From assembly GCA_040954595.2 (NCBI GenBank), contig CM082582.2, forward strand, positions 11,275,483 through 11,339,482: a DNA stretch of 64,000 nt. Reading direction: 5' to 3'. Below, piece by piece: positions 1,347 to 21,885 of the stretch (positions are counted from its first letter, which is position 1; each line of letters starts with the position of its first letter). Below the pieces are notes generated by a model. It did not search any database, was not told the origin of the DNA, and saw nothing but the letters and a program-made list of their open reading frames with translations. The translations under genes and the position numbers were made by a program. The DNA comes from Balanoglossus misakiensis (lineage: Eukaryota > Animalia > Hemichordata).

Positions 1347-4194
1347 TCAACAGAGCATGACGGCCACCAAACCCACGCCGTAACGCCTCTGTTGCATGGG
1401 ACAGACACTGCTCCACTTGTTCAGAGTTGGATCGTACTTGTCAACAGTGTTTGTACATTTGCTGCCGTCGAAGCCACCTGCCACGTAAATGCAGCCATTC
1501 AGTGTAGCGGCACAAGCGCTGCTGCGAACTTTACTCATCGGTCGCACAAACGTCCACTGGTTGCTCTCGGGGTCGTATCGCTCCACCGTGTTCAGCCACT
1601 CCCCGTTGTGGCCACCGATGGCGTAAATACAGCCGTTCAGGACAGTGACCGACACGTACGCCCTCCGCAGGTGCATCGGTGCGACGCTCGTCCACATCTT
1701 TTGGCTGGGGTCGTAGCGCTCCACGGATGTCAGGAAGTCCTCCTTGTTTCCTCTGTTGCCACCTGTTGTGAATCAATATGCAAATGATATGAGGCATGCA
1801 AATTAGTATATTTATACATGTATCAATGCACAAACACAACCATACACACACACGGCACCCTATATGTGATACATGTATTTAATAACAATCATGTGATCAG
1901 GGCCTTGTGTTAATTTACAGCCAACAAGTGTTACAAGTTCAAAGTCACACGCGTAAAATGTCATCAACTCATCAAAACCCTCAATATCGTAATTACCTGT
2001 GCCACCCACAGCATACAGCATCCCGCCAATAACAGCAGTGCCGAAGAAGGCCCTCTTATTCTTCATGGACGGGACATAGTTCCACGTCTTGGACTGAGTG
2101 GAATAGACCTCGACGGAGTCCAAATACTGGCAGTCATCCTGGCCTCCGCACGCGTACAGTTGTCCGTTCAGTACAGACACCGCGACACCGTGCCTGGACT
2201 CGTGCATGGGTCCCAATTCTTCCCAGGTGTTCGTCACAACGTCGTATTTCTCCACCAAGTTCAACGCGTGCATGGAGTTGCTGCCACCTGTGAGAGATTG
2301 AGAAAAATATGTCCATGCAAAATGAAACAAGAGATAGCTGTCACTCTCACACAAAAGTCTTCATTATAATCTCATTTTCTACTGCGTCCCTTGGCTTAGC
2401 CCATCCTTTCTTTTGAACACTTACCAACTACATACACAACGTTAGAATCATAGACCACTCCAAAGGCAGACCTGGGATTGTTCATGGAGCTGATTGGAGT
2501 CTTGCTGGCACTGCCACTTATTGTATATTCACTCTGAGACAAGTGAGTGGTCCAGCCATTGTTGTCTGCTATGTGGCACTGCACTGTCGCTAAAGTTTGG
2601 CCGTTGGACTCGCCGCCAATGGCAAGAAGACCCTGTTCAAAAGATAGAAATAGCACTATTGATAAAGTTGATGTAAAAAGCTGTCCATAATATTATTTGT
2701 ACAGAGAAAAAAACATGGTCAATTTGTAGTCTGAAGAATGGACTTGGACTAAACCATGGTGGTGAAAGGGTTAAAGTTATTTACCTTAACTCTCTTACTG
2801 TGGCATTTTCGTTTCCCCTTCCCATACTTCATTATCACATTTTCCACATTATTGGCCTCTTGCAAAACCCGCTGGACGTCGCCCAGCATCTTGCAGTGCT
2901 CAGGGATTTCGGACAAGACCACCTCGTTGTTCAACTGATCCAGTAGAAATTCGGGCGATACCTGGAAAAGCCGGACCTTCCCGAGCAAAGCGCCGAGGTG
3001 GCATAAGCGTTGTTCCGTGTCCTCTTTCACCCACCGTGTCACGGACAGAAACACCTGGTTTTCGCTGTCAACGCCCAGAAAATCAGAGCCCACCAGTTCG
3101 TCCAACTGCTCATACCGCAGATGGAGGAATTCATCCTCCTTGGCAGTTTCCGCAAAGTGATCGTACAGGTACTGGCGCCCTTTCTCGGCAAGTTCGTAGC
3201 AGGAATGGGCATCGGCAAAGTGCCATATTCCGATGCAATTACTTGGATGTAGCTGTCTCTCCAGGAATTCACAGCAAGCATTGCGCACTCCCGTCAACTG
3301 CAGCAGGTTGGAGCTTAACATCAGGTTTTGGACATTGGAGTCATTTATCTACAACAAAGATAATGTGTATGAAAATTGCAACTATGATTGGATTTTACCA
3401 CCCACAATTTTTATAATCAGCTGTATTTTATCAATTTTAATGGGTCACAATCCTCTGATGTTCTGCAAAAGAAAAATTCCAGAAACAACAACTTTCTGGT
3501 CTTACTTTGATGGTGGCAGTGTAGGCAAAGTCAATGAGAGCTTCAATGGCCGCAGGATCAGAATCTCTGATTGTGACACACTCTTGGCTACTTTCGACCA
3601 GCTGACCAGTGAACATGGCCTTGAAATATGGACTGCATGCTGACAACACCAGTCTGGAAAAAAATATATTGGGAACCATAACTTATCTTTATGACTGTTA
3701 CTGCCCACGCCATAGGGTCATAAATTTTTGATATAGCTACTGTTTTGAATGGTACAGGCAGAACTGAATATTATGCAGAAAAATAGTGTCAAGGACACTG
3801 GGCTCTCCATTGACTAGAATTAGCACATTCAAATGTGCCATTCATTCATCTGTTATATAGTGTTGTATACTGATCCGTTTCTACCAGTACCATAGACAAA
3901 CCCAATTGACATGAATCTTTAGCATTTTCAGGGTCTATTTACCACTGGTCTGCACACCACATTTTATTCCAGAGTAGGTCTATTCTAAGTTATTCCAAGT
4001 TACTTATATGATCACTCCCGCAAAACTTACCTGTGTGCCGGTATTTCACATTGCTTGACCTTAATGACCACATCGCACAGAGTTCCCGAAGCCCTGAACG
4101 AGTGTAGCGTTTCCAGCAGGGAATTCGGCTGGCAGCCATCTTGGTACACCAGCTCCTCCTCCTCCCCAGCCATGCCGACGATGTAATGGTATGT
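1347..4194 (-). CDS. Kelch-like protein (BTB-BACK-Kelch, KLHL-type Cullin-3 adaptor), at least 6 coding exons
   Basis: Exons approx 4031-4194 ([13 protein letters not shown]), 3506-3653 ([18 protein letters not shown]), 2785-3348 (BACK, PSNCIGI..FADAHSC), 2425-2632, 1997-2287, 1347-1762 (Kelch repeats with YAIGG..VERYDP..W). Start is either ATG 4151-4153 or an in-frame ATG at 5253-5255 ending an upstream exon. Further candidate 5'UTR exons at about 5619-5804 and 6356-6550. Confidence 0.93.
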
Positions 4195-6022
4195 CTGAAA
4201 CAATGACCACAACCAATAATTGATGTTATTCTAACTTGCATACAGTAGTGTCATCTCTTCAGACTTCACTCTAGTCTCCAGAAACACACAACAGAAGCTT
4301 TATTGGACAGATTTCATCCAGTGGTGTATATTTGCCACCTGAGAGGGAGAACAGAAACCAGTTTTAGAATTCTATTTCAGTAGTTTTAAAGCTAATTGGC
4401 CAACATAGTTCCCATCTACATTAAGCCATATATAGCAAAGATTGCTTGTCCGTGAAACTGAAATGCTTGGTTCCTGGATGACCTTTGACCCGAGCACCTT
4501 GTGACTGTTGATATGTAAGTGGTGTGGGATGATCTTCGATGAACTCTCTAGAACCTACTCGACAACTCCCTCTTATAATTGACAGGTATACTGTGATAGT
4601 TGCAGCCAGAGTCTAAACTCTTAGACAGGCCAGCTTTTGATTGTCTCCACTGCCTCTGTGGTAACAAAGCCGACATGAATATCTGTGGTACGTCCTTTAC
4701 CACAGCCAGTCAGCCTTGGACAACAGAATGGCATTCAGTACGAAGCATGTTATGTATGTAACAGTGTTGTTTTTGTACATTCGCCTGTAGCTCACTTCTG
4801 CTTTACGGTCTTTGACCTGTTACATAATGCGACAAGACAGACAGTGTATGCAGGAAAACAAGATACTATGAGCAAGACCCCTGAATGGCCAATCAACACT
4901 CACTCTGGGAAAACATGCACATGTTTGAGACACTGATATCAATTCCACTGTAGGGTGAAGTGAACAAACGAAAGGCGTTGCTGGATCGCATTGAAATGCT
5001 CTATCTGAAATTTCTTCCCAGGTTAAATAAAAATATATGTTATGAACTTCAACACTTTGCCAAAACAAACCAATTCATTCCACTTCTACAAACAGTAGAG
5101 CTAGAAATGCAAACTGAAATTTCGTCAGAAAACTTTTAAATTGTACCACTATAATGCAACTTAATACTAGTATGTGTGTTTTCGATAAAAAGGTCTGATC
5201 TGTCAAATATCTGAATCTTGAAAATGAAAGAAAAGAATACATGTACACTCACCATGACTGAGGTCCCTAATCTCAATGAATGAAACTGGCTGACCCAATA
5301 CTAATCAATTTACAACAGGGCTCTGGTAATTTGCATATTACTTTTGTTCGTAAAAATTAACCAACTATACAAAGAAAGGCAATTACCTATACGTGCATGT
5401 TCTAAGGTCATTGATCTGGTCATTCCTCAGCGACATGATGATGTCTTATGTATGGTTTATAATAGCTAAATGATTTATAGTGCAATGAAAAGGGTCATAC
5501 GGTAACCATGGGAGTTAGACGTACTTAGGACTTGCACGGTCACTGCACGCAGGCAGGCGATGATAAAATGCCAGAAAAGTGTATCACCACGCATAACAAC
5601 ACTAAAAACAAGTCATACCTCTTGTCGTCGGATGATCTTTTGAATCTGGAGGAATTATCCCACTGGCCAGCTGCTGAATGACTGTGATTCTTGTGGAATG
5701 GTCAACATGAACTAGTGGAACGACAACAACCTTGACAGCAACACCACAACTTTCCAACTCCAAACGATGTTCCACGAATTCTACAAATCACACACGCAAT
5801 CATGCTGGGGGAAAAGATAAATTAGTATTATATTAAAGAAATATTAGAAGGTCACTTGATACATTAATTGTTCAATTCGAGATAATATGAAAACTATGAA
5901 CCACACACTACACAGTACTAACGATGGAAATAATTCAGCTCAGCCTCTGCCACAGTCAGGGAACATCTACAATGCAATACAATTCAACTGCAAGAAGCCT
6001 TCGATTTCTTTATCCATGCTTA

Positions 6023-6351
6023 GGGACTGGTCAGTTTCTTTAGCGGGGGGGGGGGGGGGTGGATATAATTTTGTAGATATCAATAGGTTGGTGACCCCCC
6101 TCCCTCCCATGTTAGGAAATTGTATAAAATGCAGAGCCCAAAGCTGCATTTAATGAATTCGAAAGCAAATCAAACCAACAATGTTGGGGAGGACAAATTT
6201 TACCTTTGCCCTTCAAAGTTACCAATGAAGGGGGTGGGTGTGGGAGGGGGTGTCCCCCTCCCATGTTAGAAAATGTTGCATTTCCAAAACAAGGTGACCC
6301 CCCCCCCCCAATTAATCCACCCCACCCACAGGGAAGAAACTGACCAGTCCC
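6023..6351. mobile_element. PIF/Harbinger-type MITE
   Basis: 18-bp terminal inverted repeats GGGACTGGTCAGTTTCTT ... AAGAAACTGACCAGTCCC, flanked on both sides by TTA (6020-6022, 6352-6354). Internal poly-G/poly-C tracts and a duplicated CCCTCCCATGTTAG motif. No coding capacity. Confidence 0.85.
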
Positions 6352-6549
6352 TTACCTCATGTACCTTGAAGCTGCCAACTTGGCCCTGAAGGCTGAACTG
6401 GTGAAATCGACACTACAGGTCACGAGTATGACATTGGCCCCGTTTTCAAGGTCACAAACACACCCGCGCCTGAGGTCACACAGTAGTACACACGGCACAG
6501 GTCATCTGGGTCACAACTACCATTCAAAACTATCTTCTATTCACGGGCT

Positions 6550-6720
6550 TGTCATGACAGCTCCTCGTGTTCTAATGTTCATATATCTCATAACAATAAA
6601 TACACTTAAAACTCTGACCTCCAAGCATGCGCAGTGTGTTCGAAATGGTTTCATGTTTTGTTATGTATGTTGCGGGGCGCCACCATGTTAATAGCCAGCC
6701 AGGAAGATATCCGAATATAC
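6550..6720. promoter_or_regulatory. Probable bidirectional promoter between the Kelch gene (-) and the ligase-like gene (+)
   Basis: Head-to-head arrangement, NRF1-like AGCATGCGCA at 6624-6633 and GC-box-like GCGGGGCG near 6672. TSS positions are inferred. Confidence 0.4.
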
Positions 6721-7253: not shown

Positions 7254-10200
7254 ATGGGGTCTGAACTTCGAGCAGACATGCACTTAATATTTTCCAAAGA
7301 AGATGTTGTGGAAGCCGTTTTGGAGAAAATTGATAAAGAAACTCAAGAAGATGAAAACATTGAACATTGTCTCAGGTGTGCAGTTGGGCTAGAAAATGGT
7401 GGATTGACTTTAGATGAAGAGACAGCAAGAAAACAAGCTGAACGGTAATTACATTTATGTGTTGTTCCTGAGACAGAAAGATTTTGTGTAATACTCAACA
7501 ATAATAACTATCACAGATACTAGGAGGCAGTGTATTAATTATAATACTTGCATGCATCATATAATGGAGGTAAAAAATAATCTGTGGACTGTGGACCACA
7601 TGAGTGCGTAACAAAATGCTTGCAGGCCTATAATTAAAATGCATCATTTTTATTATTATTATAAAAATAGCTTCTTGGACTGGGCCAGGGGTAGAAGTCT
7701 GCTGAAACTGGTGTCAGCCGATGTGCCTATGGGCGTCATACCGAAATGCAAGGCTGCTTTGATTGACATCAAAGTTGCTGCCAGAGGTGCCCCTGATGAC
7801 AAGATTTACGACAGAAACAAAGATATCAGAGACAAGGTAAAATGTTGTCAGTATGTACAATCATGGTATTCACCCTGCATAGAAGTTAATAATCCCCCCA
7901 AGTGTAAAAGTATGACCCAATATGAACTTTTATTTTCTTCACATTTTTGGCAGGTTGCAAGGGGCAATTCTTTCCTTCAAATCACAAGTGGACCACACAC
8001 ATCATTGTTCTGCATCATCTACGCTTTGAAAAAATTCACAGGTGGTCTTGGAGATGAAGATGACGGTAATGGAGGCGACAATGTCACTTGGAAAAAATAC
8101 TTTACAAAGGTACAAATGATGCATTGGTAGTTACATGTAGACTGGTTCTGGTTAATAACAAAGATTGCCAAGTTATTCTGTTATATCTTCATGATTCATG
8201 TGTGATTGTTTCCTTGGTACAGCCCCTAGATGAAGCAACTCACATCGTTGCCACCAGAAAGGCCAATGGTGAAGCTGCTCACTTCAGTGCCAGGTACATC
8301 GGCGACACTGTGGTGCTGTGTGGAGGATCCAAAAATGTACACATGCTGTTCAGATCAGAAGGCAAGTATTTCTCAGTTCTGTCAGTGAGGTATCGATATA
8401 GGAACAGCCATACTGGCCAGGATACATTGGCTTCTCAAAAGTTCTTGTACCAGTAATAGTCCGTCAATCTCTGCCACACTCATCATCTCTACATTACAAT
8501 GTATTTCCTTGTACAGATGATATTTTGAAACACACTGACAGCAGATACAGAGTTGCAAAGGAGGTCTGCTTGGCAATTTGGAGCTTCTTGCAAGACATGG
8601 AAGCAGAATGCAGAAAGAGGTTAGTCACCTTCATATTTTATTTGCGGTAAAATTGACTAGTAGGGGAAGATCTGAGAATTATGCAGGAGAGCATAGTTAA
8701 TCATCATCATTAATAGTTAATTATTAATAATTATTTATTAATATTTTATTTTTCAGGTTGCTGAGCTTTCTCTGCCACAGTAATTTCACAGCTGTTTTTG
8801 AAATTTTACAACCACATTGTCAACATGTTGAAAACCTCTCACACCTAAAACAGTAAGTAAATATTAGCACATACTTGGAAGATCTGGTAAAACCTTCATT
8901 TTATTTTTGAGTATGACATGCGCTGTATTATATATTCACATGTTGACTGTGTTGTATACTGAAAAATTGCAGATTAATATACTATACTTTTCATACGAGT
9001 GCTCAAAGATTAAATTTGGGTGCATTTCCATTTTGTAGATCTGAGCTAAGGTTTATTACGTGGACCACATCAGTTTTGGAACCAGACTCCAAGTCTCAAC
9101 TGTGTGCAATAAATCCCCATGTGTCGATGCTGGTAAGTCCTTCAGCCAAATTTACTTTCTCTACTGTTTTGGGAGTTTTCTACCCCATTATTAAAAGTTG
9201 CTGCTTAGGACAATCTATGGGTTATCATTGACTTTGGTCTATCATCATATCACACACACTTGCTACAGATTGGCAAAGCCCTGGGATTGCTGACGTTGCA
9301 GTGTGATGTGATTCCCATCATTCACTTGGAGGAGAGGATGAAAGCAGTCCGGCAGGGCTACCAGTACGAGGGAGAAGTCTTCTATTTTCTGGATTCACAC
9401 AAGGCGGTCATCGGTCTGCTGAAAAAGAAAACTATCTGGTAAGCTCCTTTGCTGTGGTAGGGTCACAGAACAAGTCAGACTTTTTTATATATGTTGCCCC
9501 ACTTATGAACAAATTTTTTAATGCTGTTTTTCACAAGGTACATCATCGTGAGAGCAATCCGGGAGAAAGTAAGAGCAGCGTGTAATTCTTACGCCAAAAG
9601 CAGCAGTTTCGACGAAGCGACCTCCAAGAGGAAAATCAACAGGCGAATCAATGAAATACAACAATGGCTGGGACTGGATGACAAGTCCACAAGAGCATGG
9701 CAGGTGAAGTGACTTTTTGTCTTCCCTTAATCCAAATTACGATGCAAAATTTCTTGAGAAAGCAGCTTCTCTAAATCCCCTGTTTCTCTGTCTAGAACTT
9801 GGGGTGTGATTTCCTTGTTTGGACCGTGAAGGAAATGAAGAGAGCCCGAGTGAAGAAACACGAAGTCGCAGACTCCTTCCCAGTTGTGTGGTTAGTACAA
9901 GGCTTTTGTTGCTTTCACATCGTAGGGCCTTTGTGAACCATTGTGTTGATATTCAACCATGAAACCTTCACATGCCATCAATATCTTCACCGTTTTGTTG
10001 TCCAGACATTTTGAAATTTCACAAGGGTCATAATGAGGAAAAACAAAAGTGTATCTTAAAGGATGATAGAGGGCGATATATGTGTGTAAATAAAAGTCGT
10101 ATCTGGGAGAACCACTTGAAATGAAACCGAGATATTAATTCTAAATGACCCCTGACACCTTCAACACATTGATAAAATTGGCAATAAGAAAAACTTCACA

Positions 10201-10338
10201 TAGATACCTCAAACATGTTACAGCCGCTGATCTCATTCCATTTCTTGACTTCTTTTCAGGACGAGATTTCTGGAAGAAACTGGAAAAAGTGATTGCATTT
10301 CATCTGTGTGGACAGAACCACAGGGATCAGACGATTGA
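7254..10338 (+). CDS. Putative ATP-dependent RNA ligase, T4 Rnl1/Trl1-like adenylyltransferase domain (about 480 aa, 11 exons)
   Basis: Exons approx 7254-7444, 7671-7836, 7954-8109, 8223-8361, 8517-8619, 8757-8852, 9039-9132, 9269-9438, 9537-9703, 9796-9890, 10260-10338 splice in frame. Motifs: VARG...YALKKF, ATRKANG (motif I KxNG), GGSKN (Ia), TAVFEIL (III), YEGEVFY (IV), LLKKKTIWYIIVRAIRE (V). AATAAA near 10497. The gene model is solid, the functional call is motif-based. Confidence 0.72.
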
Positions 10339-10875
10339 AATCACAATAGAATACATGTACATATATTCTTTAATTCTGACAAGTTGTCCTAATGGGTAAC
10401 AGAGAAAAAGAGGGGGACAAGGTGAAAAAGAGTTGGGTTTTTGTAACCATTGGATTAAACTGTGTGTCCAGGAGGAACGCACAGAAAATAGAATGTAATA
10501 AAGTGTATGATATATTGGAGTAATACATAAACTTGGCGCTTTGTCGTTAGTACATGTAATTAAAAGCAAATTCATTTGATAAAAATGTCGAAAACCTGCG
10601 CGTGAACTGACTGAGCTTATGGGAGGCGCGCACTGCATTGTGGACCTGGTAAAAGGGACTATGGAACTCCTCTTGTTGCTATGTTCTACATGTTCTACGC
10701 GCCATCTCTTCTGCTCTTGTTCTCTCAGCATCCAGAAATCAGAGGAAAAAAGATCGTGCGTGGAGCTTCATCCGCGCCAAGCGCATATTCAAGATGATGA
10801 CAGTGTTCGGGTTTGTAGACAGAAGATGATAACAAACTTAGAAGCGTTTTATGGCTTATAGCCTGACTTTTCGAA

Positions 10876-13800
10876 ATGAGGGGTGTGTGCTTGCTCGTCG
10901 TCTTGTGCGTGCACTATGTTTGCGTCCTATCAACCGAGTTGCGTCACACACGTCGAGTTTCACGGGCAGTCAGCGGGCCGGAATCATCGCCACATCACCG
11001 AGCGAAGAGATTCACAGACTACACCGAGACTGACATTGAGTACTGGATCAACAGACATAGGCAGCTGCGTAGCGAAGTCGATCCGCCAGCCTCTGATATG
11101 AAATTCATGGTAAGACGGCTTCCTCATAACTTTACCAAAGCCACTCATTTGTTGAAAGTCAACCTTATTGTACACTAGAATTATATATATGGGTATCAAA
11201 AATGCGTATGGGCGATATTCCAGACAAGGGGTTAACTCTGGGTGAACGCATTGGCACGACACTGTATTACTGTAAAAGTTGTGTAGCATCCGACCGTGTG
11301 GAAGTAAACACAAACGCCTATTGGTCGTTCTCTACCCACACATGCGCAGTACTGGGATGACGACCTGGCCACGATGGCCCAGACCTGGGTGGACTTTTGC
11401 TACTGGGAGCACGGCGACCCCGACATCCCACACTCTTACGATCACACGGGTCAGAACATGTGGATGAGGGGTTGGTCGTCACTCGAAATGCGGCCGAACG
11501 TGTCCGTCGCCGTTGATGCCTGGTACGATGAGCGGCCGGACTACGACTACGAGACGAACAGCTGTGCTCCGGGTACTGTTTGCGGACATTACACTCAGGT
11601 ACGCGGTATGAATCTTTGATGCTCTCCCGGCTTGGATGCATTATCCTTCTACACAAATCTCTTTCGACTTTTAATATTGTATTTTTAAGTCACCACATGG
11701 ATATATGTGTTCTATTCCTTAGAAGATTCCGTAGAAGATGCTGCGTTATTGTCCGTAGTAGTATAAGCGTAGAATACACTAATAGCGACATCAAATTGTA
11801 ACTTCTGAAATAAGCCTTGCAGGTACAGGATATTGCTCCTTGATTGAGTAGACTTGCCGTTCACCGATTTCTGTTGTAGGTAGTTTGGGCGGAATCGTAC
11901 AGTCTGGGGTGTGGCATTAATTTCTGTCCCGTAGTTAACAACTCCGACTACACAGACACGTGGCTTATTGTCTGCAACTACGGACCATCGTAAGTCGACT
12001 TAATTTACGATCACAAATACACAAACAAACTAGTGAGGCGATGGTTCGTCGATGTTCATTTAAGAAATAATATAAACCTGTCTAATGAATTCATTGTGTG
12101 TCAACTTTCAGCGGTAATTTCATAGGGCAACTTCCATATCAGACGGGCGATCCGTGCACAAAATGTTCGTCTGGACTCGGACAGTGTTATCAGAACATGT
12201 GCAGTGAGTATAATCTCTTTGTAGTTTCGAGTCAAACCCTGATGCGAATCCGTAGCTTCTTTCGACGCAAAGAGGTTCAAAGATAAACATAGAGGTCGGA
12301 TATGGAGATTAATGCGTCAATATAGAAACATATCCAAATAGTTTCTCTCAGTTGTTGATGTCCAAACACTACAATTCGAAACCAAATCAAACGATGATAA
12401 CTATATGTTACATTTACACGACTCTTCTACTTATTTTTATTCCCATCACAGGACCATGCTCAGAACACAGTGAACCCTGCGGTGAGTAACATAGAAACTG
12501 TCCACATTGTCTTCTAAAATTCTTCGACACAAACTTCACACATCATACGTACATTTTCGACCGAACTGAAGCAGAATTATTCTCGTTGACTTTCCCTCCT
12601 TTATGTAATTTTTTCAGTGTGTAATACCAGGTGCTTAAACTGTGGAACTGTTCAAAATGACTGCACGTGCAAATGCGAAGATGGGTGGTACGGCCCGGAT
12701 TGTAGCAGTAAGTATTTTCACCCTGAATTCGGTTTCTTCAGCAGAATTGACCAACATACTTCCAGAATGACGAATGCACCATCCAAGAAACGTGTCGACC
12801 TTCTTGTTCTATAAAATCAAACGACAAAAAAGTTTATTGGCTTTTATATTTTATCCAACAGCGCCTTGTGTGAACACACATGTGTATTGCGGTGCCAATC
12901 CCGGCTGGTACGACGCTTCTGTCTGTCACGTGGCGGACTATATACCAGAGTTGTGTCCTCTAATGTGTGGAGTTTGCAGTAAGTAACGCATAATATCGCT
13001 TGACCCTACAATGTCAAGTAAAATCTCGCCATTTTACTCTCATCTTACTGGTTTCTGTACAGGGGGGGGGGGGGGGTTAATGTTGCAGGTGTTGTATACG
13101 TGTCAGTGTTTTCAATCCTGTCCTCATTGACATTGTATTTTTACTCTGTTCTATATAGATGGAACATCAGAAAACACAACTTGTGGTAAGAGCAAAGATG
13201 TTACTTTTTAACTCTTGTAAAATATATCTGGATATTCATGTCGAACAACAGTTCACATGGTATGGATGCAAGTCAGTTTTCGTGGTGAATGGTCTTTGCA
13301 AATGCCATGACTATCAAACGCCATGTCACAATTACATTCTTCGTTCAATCCAACGACAGGGATACCGACTACGAACATTGTTACAACCGACGTCACTTCC
13401 GCCGCATCGACCACACAGTCGCCTGCTTCTGGTGACGTCACTCCTTCCATTCTCGCGACTGATGTTGGAGTCACGGGGGTTTGGGCTCCCGTCACAGAAG
13501 TCACTACTGATATCACCACAGCGCGATCAACTCCTGGAAGAACCACCTCGTCGACACCAACTGTCCACGGGGGTACCGTGTCTTCAACCAATAACACCGA
13601 ACCGAACTCGACAGAAACCATTCCTTTGGAAGAAATCACTAACACAGTCGACAACTACGTCACTACTTCTGATGACGTCAGGACGACAATATGGACATAC
13701 ACAGGTAACTTCGCTAAGAAATTGGCAGTAATCTGTTCACTGAAACTGTCTAAGAAGTAAGAATTTCGGCTGATGAATTTAGCGGAATTTTGCTGTCCAC

Positions 13801-19000: not shown

Positions 19001-21885
19001 TTGTCGCCCATTTTCGTATTGGCCAATTTCTGGCGAATTGATCTGTAAATCTCTCGATCGCATCGCCTATTAAACAGTTTAATCTCTGTATAAACGACGA
19101 TACACGTTCTTGCGGAAGACCGATTTTAACCATTCAAGAAACATGATTGTGGTGTGTAAAGACCACATATAGAAACATAGGTGATAGATAAGACGCATCT
19201 CTACATAACTCTGATTTTTAATCAGATTGTGGACACCTAAAAATACAGCACAAGCTTCACTAACACGGCAATCATCATTCGATATCCCTCCTTAATCATA
19301 AATGGGTTTAAAATCTCCCGGGATGGTCTGTCAGCACACGGAGTTAATTTCCTGGTGATATTGTCTAGCTCTCGCCTGTCAAAATATTTTCGCGATTCGA
19401 TGAACCTGAATGTGACGGAGGATATACTCAGGATTGGTGATTTCGCGTATCGGCTCATGGCCCGTGGATTTACAGGTCTTATTACCCGCCTTTACTGTTT
19501 TCAGTGACGTTCAGATGGAAATCAGCTGACTGACAACACCTGACATTTCAAATATGACTTCAAAAATTGGGCGACGCGTCGATTTACGAATTCAAAGGAT
19601 AGAATTTCCACTCGGAGCCAGAAAGTCAGAGGAAGGATTACTGAAAATTTCTGCCCATTTCCGGTTTCACCTCTTTGATATCTGATGTTTTTTATCAGGA
19701 TTAAACGTGAGTGGGGTGTGTGTTAAGTTTGATAATATCGCGACGAAAAACACTGCTGTTATCTGAAAACACGTGTTCGTTGCAGCGTCGGTTACGCGTG
19801 ACGAGAATTAAAATTCACTGACTGCCACAAAAATGTCAAATTCATCTACTAGGCCTACATACAGGATGCACGACATGGAATCTATAATTGTTTCCATATC
19901 ATTCCAGCTGGTAAAGTTCAGTCTAGACCGACTCTTGAGCAGCAAAAGATTTCTAGTTAAACTACAAGATGGCAGTTTGATATTTTAGAAAAACGAGACG
20001 ATGTACATTCGCGACTCTCCCAAAAAGCAATGAAATGCGGTTGAGTGGTTTCTAATGACACTGACAGAGAAAATGAAACGCCGTTAATAGCTTTAGGGTT
20101 CAAATATTGGCTCGTCTGCCCGTGCGCGGAAAGCTTTGATCGGCCGTGTTTGCAGACGAAGAATTGTTTTAAAAGCACACGAAGATGAGACACCAGCTGG
20201 GACTTTGTGTAATGAATGCCATCGCTCCGTGCATATCAATTATCATGGCCGTGGCAACATTATTTAAAGGCCCACAAGCTGCAACCAATGTATGATCATG
20301 CATTCGTTTACATCAGTGTATTCATGTAAGATCAGAGCAAATCAGAAATAGCTTTAATACAGTCAATACATTTTTTGATTACTTTTAGATTTTGTTGTGA
20401 TGTCCTATTAGGAATTCTGGGTCACGGACCCCGTACGATAGTATCTCACGCGCATCACTTTTACTCGCTAGCTGTGTCCAAGTTCCACGAGTTTTGAACA
20501 TACACCAATTAAATCCCCATTTTGATGAAAGAAGCTATCATTTCCACGAGGATGTGAAGTTTGGAACAATGTTCGGTTAAATTGGAAGTGTAAATTTAGG
20601 GGAAATCGAAAAATGAAATTATGGACCTGGTCACTGTATTACTGTAGTATATTATTGGATACGCACACATCTGTAGATGGAAGCCCAGAATCAAAAGTAA
20701 ACACAGAAGTCGTTTTTCATTGACTTTTTTAAATTGTTGCAATGTGTCAGAATATTTGAGGGCATGTTTTCACGAACATTACGCAAAAGCTGTTTAAATA
20801 TCCGAAGGGCATGTACGCGCTGGCGAGTTATAATTAATATCTGAGGGAAGCATCAATGTTTGAATCCAATATTTGATGTGAAATACTTTTATCATGGGGC
20901 TATCTGGTCCGTATTTAGTTGAAAGAGTTGCTGGTTGGTGACCAAACGATGACGTCAGATCCGTTCAATTCTGCTCCCAGTTATGATGACACTGTTGGCT
21001 TGTTGTTTACGCAGACAGATGCCGCAGCAACGTCCCTCCCCGATAACTCTCTATTGGACAGATAAAATATATTATCATCTCTAACCGGCCATAAAGTTGT
21101 TTTTAGTGAACAACAAGCGTTGTGCCTTCATTATACATCATCAGTCGAGATAATGGAAAATAATTAGCATTTTCCATTGGTCAAGGTGACTGGTAACCAA
21201 GTCACATGGCCTCAGGAAATGTGTAAGTTTGAAAGTGCATATGTACTTTTGATGTCAGCAAGGTTGAAAGAAATATTTTCAAAATGAAATATGACCCGAT
21301 CGGTTGTTTGACAGACAAATGAGTGATGATCAATTGATCAGCATCGCATCACATCATGTAAACAAGCGGAAGAGGTGAGCACATTTGATTGGTTCCGGGT
21401 ATTGATCACGTGATCCACAGTTGCTCGGCTGTCCACCAATGACGGCGTCGCGATCAAATCTGTCGCACGTCAGGCAATCGGCGGCTAGCATGATTGACGT
21501 GCATTGATTATAGAGCTATACTCTTGGGTTTATTAAGAGCTGGACTGTTTTTGTAACACCCGTGGAACGTTTATAAAGCTAGGTTCATTCGCTGTGGTTG
21601 TACGCACCTCAATTTGAATAATTTATCCGGGGGGGGGGGGGGGTTCATAATCAAATAAAATCTGATTCCGTAGTAATTGGTAATTACTCAGACATCAATC
21701 TTCGCTGTATGCTATGGCTATTCTTCTGTTATTAATATTTCACAGCCGTGACTAATTGTTTACATAATTTCCACGCACTTGCTTTAAACAACTTTTTACC
21801 CGATTTCACGCCCTCCGCACATCACATGGATTTCGCGACGCTTGACTGTCGTATATGGTCCTCTCGCACCTGCAGGCGCTGAGCG

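Follow-up and report, generated by a model that had tools for sequence, protein, structure and literature searches.

The stretch analysed here, 64,000 nucleotides of the Balanoglossus misakiensis genome (assembly GCA_040954595.2, contig CM082582.2, positions 11,275,483 to 11,339,482 of the forward strand; hereafter the window), carries on its plus strand an 11-exon gene whose product is predicted to be a stand-alone RNA ligase resembling the ligase domain of fungal Trl1 (Trl1-LIG). Read directly from the region as a spliced model, the gene extends from an ATG at 7254 to a stop codon at 10336–10338, and its exons join into a frame of 1455 nt that encodes 484 residues with no internal stops. The introns measure 92–369 bases; all ten end in an AG acceptor, and nine begin with a GT donor. 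Intron 4 (8362–8516) is of the GC-AG type, with the consensus-like donor GCAAGT. This donor is needed for the open frame, because use of a nearby GT donor leads to a stop at codon 219. The spliced model aligns with its ortholog from the hemichordate Ptychodera flava (P0001) over 484 of 484 residues, at 77% identity and without gaps, and the exon boundaries are therefore fixed independently. The model and the P. flava and Branchiostoma orthologs also share an identical C-terminal end residue. The open frame and the gap-free match bear out the preliminary description of this DNA, made from the letters alone, which had placed an intron-rich animal gene at 7254 to 10338.

Coding exon 1 (7254–7444) supplies the ATG and the N-terminal helices, and an AG immediately before the ATG suggests, at the sequence level, an upstream untranslated exon. 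The Rnl1-like N-subdomain is encoded by exon 2 (7671–7836), with residues D106, D107 and R117, and continues in exon 3 (7954–8109), where R122 and K146-F147 are spaced as their counterparts R99 and K120-F121 in C. thermophilum Trl1 (CthTrl1). Exon 4 (8223–8361), which precedes the GC-AG intron, contains motif I (KANG) with the predicted nucleophile K184 (codon 8259–8261) and motif Ia (SKN) with K208. Exons 5 (8517–8619) and 7 (9039–9132) of the spliced model flank exon 6 (8757–8852), which carries E267 of motif III and H275, a predicted 2'-phosphate ligand. Motif IV (E349-G350) and the motif V lysines K367 and K369 are encoded by exon 8 (9269–9438). The helical C-domain begins in exon 9 (9538–9703), with Y373 and R377xxR380-E381 as further predicted 2'-phosphate ligands; its helices continue in exon 10 (9796–9890), and exon 11 (10260–10338, including the stop) encodes the C-terminal end shared with the orthologs. 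An AATAAA lies downstream, at 10497.

The six motifs named in the preliminary description were all located in the spliced model in the order given there: ARG at residue 121 with KKF at 145, TRKANG at 182, GGSKN at 205, AVFEI at 264, YEGEVF at 348, and KKKTIWY at 367 with VR..RE at 376. Their labelling as nucleotidyltransferase motifs I, Ia, III, IV and V is correct, except that ARG..KKF and Y..R..RE fall outside the set I–V: the former matches the Rnl1-like N-subdomain of Trl1-LIG and the latter its C-domain phosphate site. When the region was shuffled 500 times, no shuffle contained six generic ligase motifs in order, nor did any of 36 further tiles taken from the window. An artefact or a chance run of motifs was rejected on the basis of these controls, the open 11-exon frame and the gap-free ortholog alignment. 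A pseudogene was likewise rejected, given the open frame, the intact catalytic residues and the absence of an ortholog gap at the GC-AG intron.

A search with exon 4 alone yielded 58 proteins from 67 candidates, led by P. flava, Glandiceps talaboti and Branchiostoma. The spliced model is 68% identical to the Glandiceps protein and 57% identical, over 448 residues, to the representative of the Branchiostoma cluster. A profile search found 206 proteins, the best 120 of which were listed; a further homolog search gave 47, all listed; and a library of 50% clusters returned 1531 matches at E ≤ 0.001 and 247 at 1e-30. The P. flava ortholog passes the cut-off of the Pfam family DUF7920 (PF25536; 38.3 bits against 27, residues 106–379), an entry that gives no function, while in a Pfam scan none of the window's 11 single exons, which are too short, matches it. 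Named members of the family come from Hemichordata, Chordata (lancelets), Mollusca, Nemertea, Annelida, Bryozoa, Rotifera, Tardigrada and Arthropoda (crustaceans and springtails) and, outside the animals, from the choanoflagellate Salpingoeca punica (479 residues), Acrasis kona and a chytrid. Vertebrate, winged-insect, nematode, echinoderm and cnidarian names were absent among the named matches listed (58 of 58, 120 of 206 and 47 of 47).

Some relatives have additional parts. A clade of ligases of about 700 residues (P0116, P0106, P0092, P0123 and P0124), one of them from the copepod Neocalanus, has a C-terminal stretch with weak, sub-threshold matches to B3/4 domains of the tRNA-synthetase editing type, a sequence feature that is possibly a hint at tRNA substrates. 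In P0192, P0224 and P0204 the ligase is joined to Methyltransf_16 (two proteins) or to HAM1-like domains (the chytrid protein); these joins may be gene-model fusions.

The residues of the active site were matched by order and spacing to those of C. thermophilum Trl1-LIG, with roles taken from PMC6379707, PMC12440814 and PMC11404444. Besides the N-subdomain residues given above, K184-x-N186 corresponds to K148 and N150, K208 to K169, E267 to E218, E349 to E300, and K367 and K369 to K323 and K325. At the 2'-phosphate site, H275 corresponds to H227, and Y373, R377, R380 and E381 to the Y333 region, R334, R337 and E338. The motif I lysine, whose loss in orthologs the preliminary description regarded as counting against a ligase, is kept in 185 of 187 homologs. 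Conservation in the same set is equally high for K208 (185), E267 (185), E349 (186), K367 (186), K369 (187), R122 (183) and K146 (184), and F147 is kept in 117 of 119 closer homologs. The putative phosphate ligands H275 (183), R377 (187) and R380 (185) form a His-Arg-Arg triad that is complete in 182 of the 187. In fungal Trl1-LIG this triad enforces the requirement for a 2'-phosphate (PMC11404444). Because both C-domain arginines are kept, and the two are reported to be absent from plant Trl1 (PMC12440814), the protein is of the fungal rather than the plant type.

An AlphaFold2 model of the P. flava ortholog, built from a 43-row alignment, has a predicted local distance difference test score (pLDDT) of 90.1 and a predicted template modelling score (pTM) of 0.89. 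Foldseek found 40 matches to it in the PDB at E ≤ 0.001, and those listed are all ligases, in agreement with the nucleotidyltransferase fold proposed in the preliminary description. The top seven rows are fungal Trl1-LIG structures (E 7e-11 to 1e-8), with T4 Rnl1 and archaeal Rnl3 ranking after them. VIA-align gave Z values of 22.5–25.3 over 338–371 aligned residues for six Trl1 entries; for 6N0T (Z 25.3, root mean square deviation 3.3) 351 of 383 residues are aligned, spanning model residues 26–474 and reaching residue 406 of 6N0T. The corresponding values are 17.7–18.0 for T4 Rnl1, whose best alignment covers model residues 61–379, and 14.2–15.8 for archaeal Rnl3, from residue 57 to about 453–454. 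Searches of the PDB with the single sequence and with the first profile found nothing. RLIG1 is absent among the listed rows of both fold searches (Foldseek and VIA-align), in which no direct comparison with it was made.

The model thus predicts a fold that belongs to the superfamily of covalent lysine nucleotidyltransferases, nearest to fungal Trl1-LIG, and a Trl1-type all-helical C-domain is likely. The original label "Rnl1/Trl1-type" is thereby narrowed, as the structure search with the ortholog model favours fungal Trl1-LIG over T4 Rnl1. Fungal Trl1-LIG (the Rnl6 clade; C. thermophilum 6N0T, 6N67 and 8RBJ, C. glabrata 9QW7) is the best structural match of the modelled protein in both domains and has in common with it motifs I, Ia, III, IV and V, the arginine and the KF pair of the N-subdomain, and the triad with its flanking Y and E. 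It differs in sequence (13–17% identity), in its fused kinase and cyclic phosphodiesterase (CPD) domains, in having SKH in place of SKN, and in the motif IV and triad details described below.

Several observations weigh against a Trl1-type assignment. The equivalence of the triad relies on a spacing that is one residue off (E+8 and K+8/+11 here, E+9 and K+9/+12 in fungal Trl1) and not on residue-level superposition, and at the position of R305, the motif IV arginine essential to Trl1, 119 of 119 homologs carry an aromatic residue (Y or F). The protein that was folded is the 77%-identical P. flava ortholog, not the window's own. The alignment with archaeal Rnl3 also extends into the C-domain, so coverage of this domain alone is not diagnostic. 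Finally, a 184-residue C-terminal fragment of a relative, folded by itself, gave no significant match: Trl1 was the top Foldseek row at E 0.37, and its Z value of 5.5 ranked 17th among generic helical bundles.

The last result also speaks for a ligase of the T4 Rnl1 kind, which would join plain 3'-OH/2'-OH ends, for example in tRNA cut during stress or infection, with no need for a 2'-phosphate. In the same direction point the Pfam RNA_lig_T4_1 matches, below threshold, in 3 of 11 scanned family members; a profile of 34 distant members, which gave T4 Rnl1 as the only sequence-level match in the PDB (E 0.001, across motifs III–V); and the first Atlas cluster, the phage-rich PF09511. There are, in addition, close structural relatives in crustacean and giant viruses: proteins of Panulirus argus virus 1 (PaV1), CroV, Homavirus and Sylvanvirus occupy viral fold rows 1–7, led by the PaV1 protein (template modelling score 0.76, 24% identity), which PMC6960288 described as an RNA ligase having homologs in animals. 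T4 Rnl1 and the PaV1 and CroV ligases have the adenylyltransferase domain in common with the protein studied here, but T4 Rnl1 has a C-domain of its own and does not join 2'-phosphate ends. Over the whole protein T4 Rnl1 reaches a Z value of 18.0, against 25.3 for Trl1, with an alignment that ends at residue 379; the triad is present in 182 of 187 homologs; and the fused relatives described below bear a CPD of the 2H type, which produces 2'-phosphate ends, and not a 3'-phosphatase. An Rnl1-kind ligase is accordingly improbable, and a Trl1-type enzyme is preferred.

The absence of healing domains stated in the preliminary description was confirmed. The 484-residue model contains no P-loop of the form GxGK[ST] or GxxxxGK[ST]. 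Its HxT/S triplets, at residues 134, 191 and 311, all fall within the ligase fold, and space for a 2H domain is lacking. In tblastn against the window, the kinase and CPD portions of five fused relatives (P0267, P0304, P0305, P0309 and P0296) matched nothing. A fused Trl1 with downstream kinase and CPD exons was rejected in view of the stop at 10338, the end shared with the orthologs and the negative tblastn results. Together with the fold and the motifs, this upholds the proposal of a stand-alone Rnl1/Trl1-type ligase domain.

The relatives from which the healing-domain queries were drawn are non-animal. P0304 and P0305 score above the Pfam thresholds of DUF7920, tRNA_lig_kinase and tRNA_lig_CPD and thus combine ligase, kinase and CPD in one chain (LIG-KIN-CPD). 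P0267 and P0309 have kinase and CPD motifs behind the same ligase, with tRNA-ligase kinase and CPD domains in P0309, while in P0296 the order is KIN-CPD-LIG. An open reading frame of 818 residues on a 405-kb giant-virus contig (L001, 2890–5346) contains the ligase motifs, a P-loop and two HxT motifs, again in the order LIG-KIN-CPD; an open reading frame resembling the end of an RNA polymerase large subunit lies near it. A second viral scan for the ligase returned 0 loci. The LIG-KIN-CPD relatives tie the family to heal-and-seal chemistry. They also bear on the reading that the protein adenylylates RNA ends or another substrate without completing ligation, for which the loss of the motif IV arginine could be adduced, as could the observation that the N-domain of fungal LIG alone adenylylates without joining (PMC11404444). 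Such an enzyme is highly improbable, since the joining C-domain is present, its RxxR is near-invariant, and the trifunctional relatives point to a complete cycle of healing and sealing. By analogy with Trl1-LIG, the encoded protein would very probably have Trl1-like ligase activity.

In 2010, Englert et al. reportedly described BfRNL, a 5'-phosphate RNA ligase of Branchiostoma floridae, and they are reported to have named homologs from Aplysia, Homarus and Brachionus; sequences from these three genera all belong to the DUF7920 ligase family. In the papers that cite it, BfRNL appears as a stand-alone 3'-OH,2'-PO4/5'-PO4 ligase which, paired with a kinase-CPD protein, can complement yeast trl1; in the lancelet pair of BfRNL and BfPNK/CPDase, healing is encoded separately (PMC10946426; PMC4408790; BfRNL is also treated in PMC3400036 and PMC10680797). 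The B. floridae ortholog of the present gene is XP_035679797/C3YGD8, which among the matches listed belongs to the one Branchiostoma cluster, of 8 members. Judged by the published description, by this single cluster and by the reported homologs, XP_035679797/C3YGD8 is very likely BfRNL. The description of an animal, ligase-only protein with weak similarity to yeast and plant ligases fits it; BfRNL is a cephalochordate protein, whereas the gene studied here is from a hemichordate.

The literature search found no paper that names DUF7920 or ties XP_035679797/C3YGD8 to BfRNL, and every named family member is labelled uncharacterised. Both facts would be expected if the gene belonged to a Trl1-type branch other than that of BfRNL, with two such genes in Branchiostoma and a family that is biochemically untouched. 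This is unlikely, because three homolog searches gave a single Branchiostoma cluster among the matches listed, and this cluster is stand-alone, Trl1-like and weakly similar in sequence, as BfRNL is described. Orthology to an enzyme already characterised, which the preliminary description had counted as a ground against its proposal, is therefore probable; the novelty of the gene falls, and its biochemical reading stands.

Two other groups of enzymes are comparable. The Mucorales Trl1, a sealing-only form (MciRNL; PMC10680797, PMC10946426) is likewise ligase-only with separate healing enzymes, but it is described as a fungal splicing ligase 49–55% similar to yeast Trl1, and the present gene belongs to DUF7920. 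RLIG1/C12orf29 is also an animal RNA ligase and is reported to self-adenylylate. It and RTCB are separate genes in B. floridae (PMC10680797), and RTCB is a protein of unrelated fold and chemistry.

A FastTree phylogeny was computed from 188 sequences and 433 columns (204 near-full-coverage sequences minus 16 redundant cluster members) and midpoint-rooted, with no fungal Trl1 outgroup. The model groups with Ptychodera (support 0.974), then with Glandiceps (1.0), and the hemichordate clade is sister to Branchiostoma (0.979), which answers the relationship to amphioxus raised in the preliminary description. The hemichordates are placed among other bilaterians, with poorly supported deeper nodes. 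Exon breaks near residues 64, 119, 171, 217 and 284 recur in the metagenome loci L032, L033, L038 and L046 and therefore fit old vertical inheritance. A recent viral or fungal transfer is disfavoured by the ten introns, the shared intron positions and the hemichordate-lancelet kinship in the tree. Decapod sequences branch apart from other bilaterians, adjoining another large clade; gene exchange with viruses is possible. We lean slightly towards the view that DUF7920 is an animal-wide, 2'-phosphate-dependent branch of Trl1-type ligases that originated in a unicellular ancestor and was kept in at least nine phyla; the early origin is suggested by the stand-alone choanoflagellate member and the shared intron positions.

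Taken as a whole, the gene is best explained as coding for a stand-alone, Trl1-type, ATP-dependent ligase that would seal 5'-phosphate to 3'-OH/2'-phosphate ends and is the hemichordate ortholog of a lancelet protein that is very likely BfRNL, a reading to which we assign a probability of about 85%. In the proposed mechanism, K184 would accept AMP from ATP to form lysyl-AMP and pass it on to the 5'-phosphate of the RNA. H275, R377 and R380 would grip the 2'-phosphate beside the attacking 3'-OH, whose attack would seal the ends and leave a junction 2'-phosphate for removal by a Tpt1-type enzyme. Healing would take place in trans, through a separate PNK/CPDase or through Clp1 and a CNP-like enzyme. 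Our best guess for the role in the animal is repair or a second heal-and-seal route beside RTCB, which may act on broken or endonuclease-cut tRNA and on other RNA. A role in RNA damage or infection is kept in play because viruses carry related ligases.

The divergent neighbour of the ligase gene, on the minus strand at about 1350–6550, encodes a BTB-BACK-Kelch protein, which we take to be IPP-like. Three gastropod orthologs of the ligase (P0033, P0062 and P0077) are named "actin-binding protein ipp" at NCBI, yet hold only DUF7920; these names are a possible trace of ancient linkage between the ligase and Kelch genes. No Kelch match was found beside the ligase in 46 loci, whose flanks are mostly short. 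Directly 3' of the ligase, on the plus strand at about 10870–12300, lies a gene with a CAP (cysteine-rich secretory) domain. Farther downstream, between about 21880 and 54510 on the plus strand, there are four first-domain matches to the amiloride-sensitive sodium channel family (ASC), at 21883, 36016, 44906 and 52044. CUB exons come after each of them, and in one case TSP1 exons do as well; they form a tandem channel array, possibly with CUB/TSP1 inserts in the extracellular loop. No tRNA genes were found in the 64-kb window.

The gene is real, intact and rightly interpreted, and of a kind already characterised in the lancelet, to which it adds a hemichordate example. Its broader value lies in a function for DUF7920 and in the range of this ligase, which takes in nine animal phyla as well as protists and large DNA viruses. 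According to reviews, animals other than the lancelet lack Trl1 homologs (PMC4090602; PMC4931112; PMC10598085) or, in the excerpt of PMC13247085, animals lack them, with the lancelet unmentioned. The enzyme that splices the tRNA introns of B. floridae, which encodes RTCB and C12orf29 as well, is stated to be unknown (PMC10680797), and the wide occurrence of an intact active site makes this question testable in more animals. If the animal-wide reading is true, most invertebrate lineages would possess, next to RTCB, a heal-and-seal pathway of the fungal type, vertebrates would have lost it or exchanged it for RLIG1, and giant and crustacean viruses would use it as well. Acorn worms, snails and crustaceans would then be tractable systems for exploring the purpose of a second ligation pathway.

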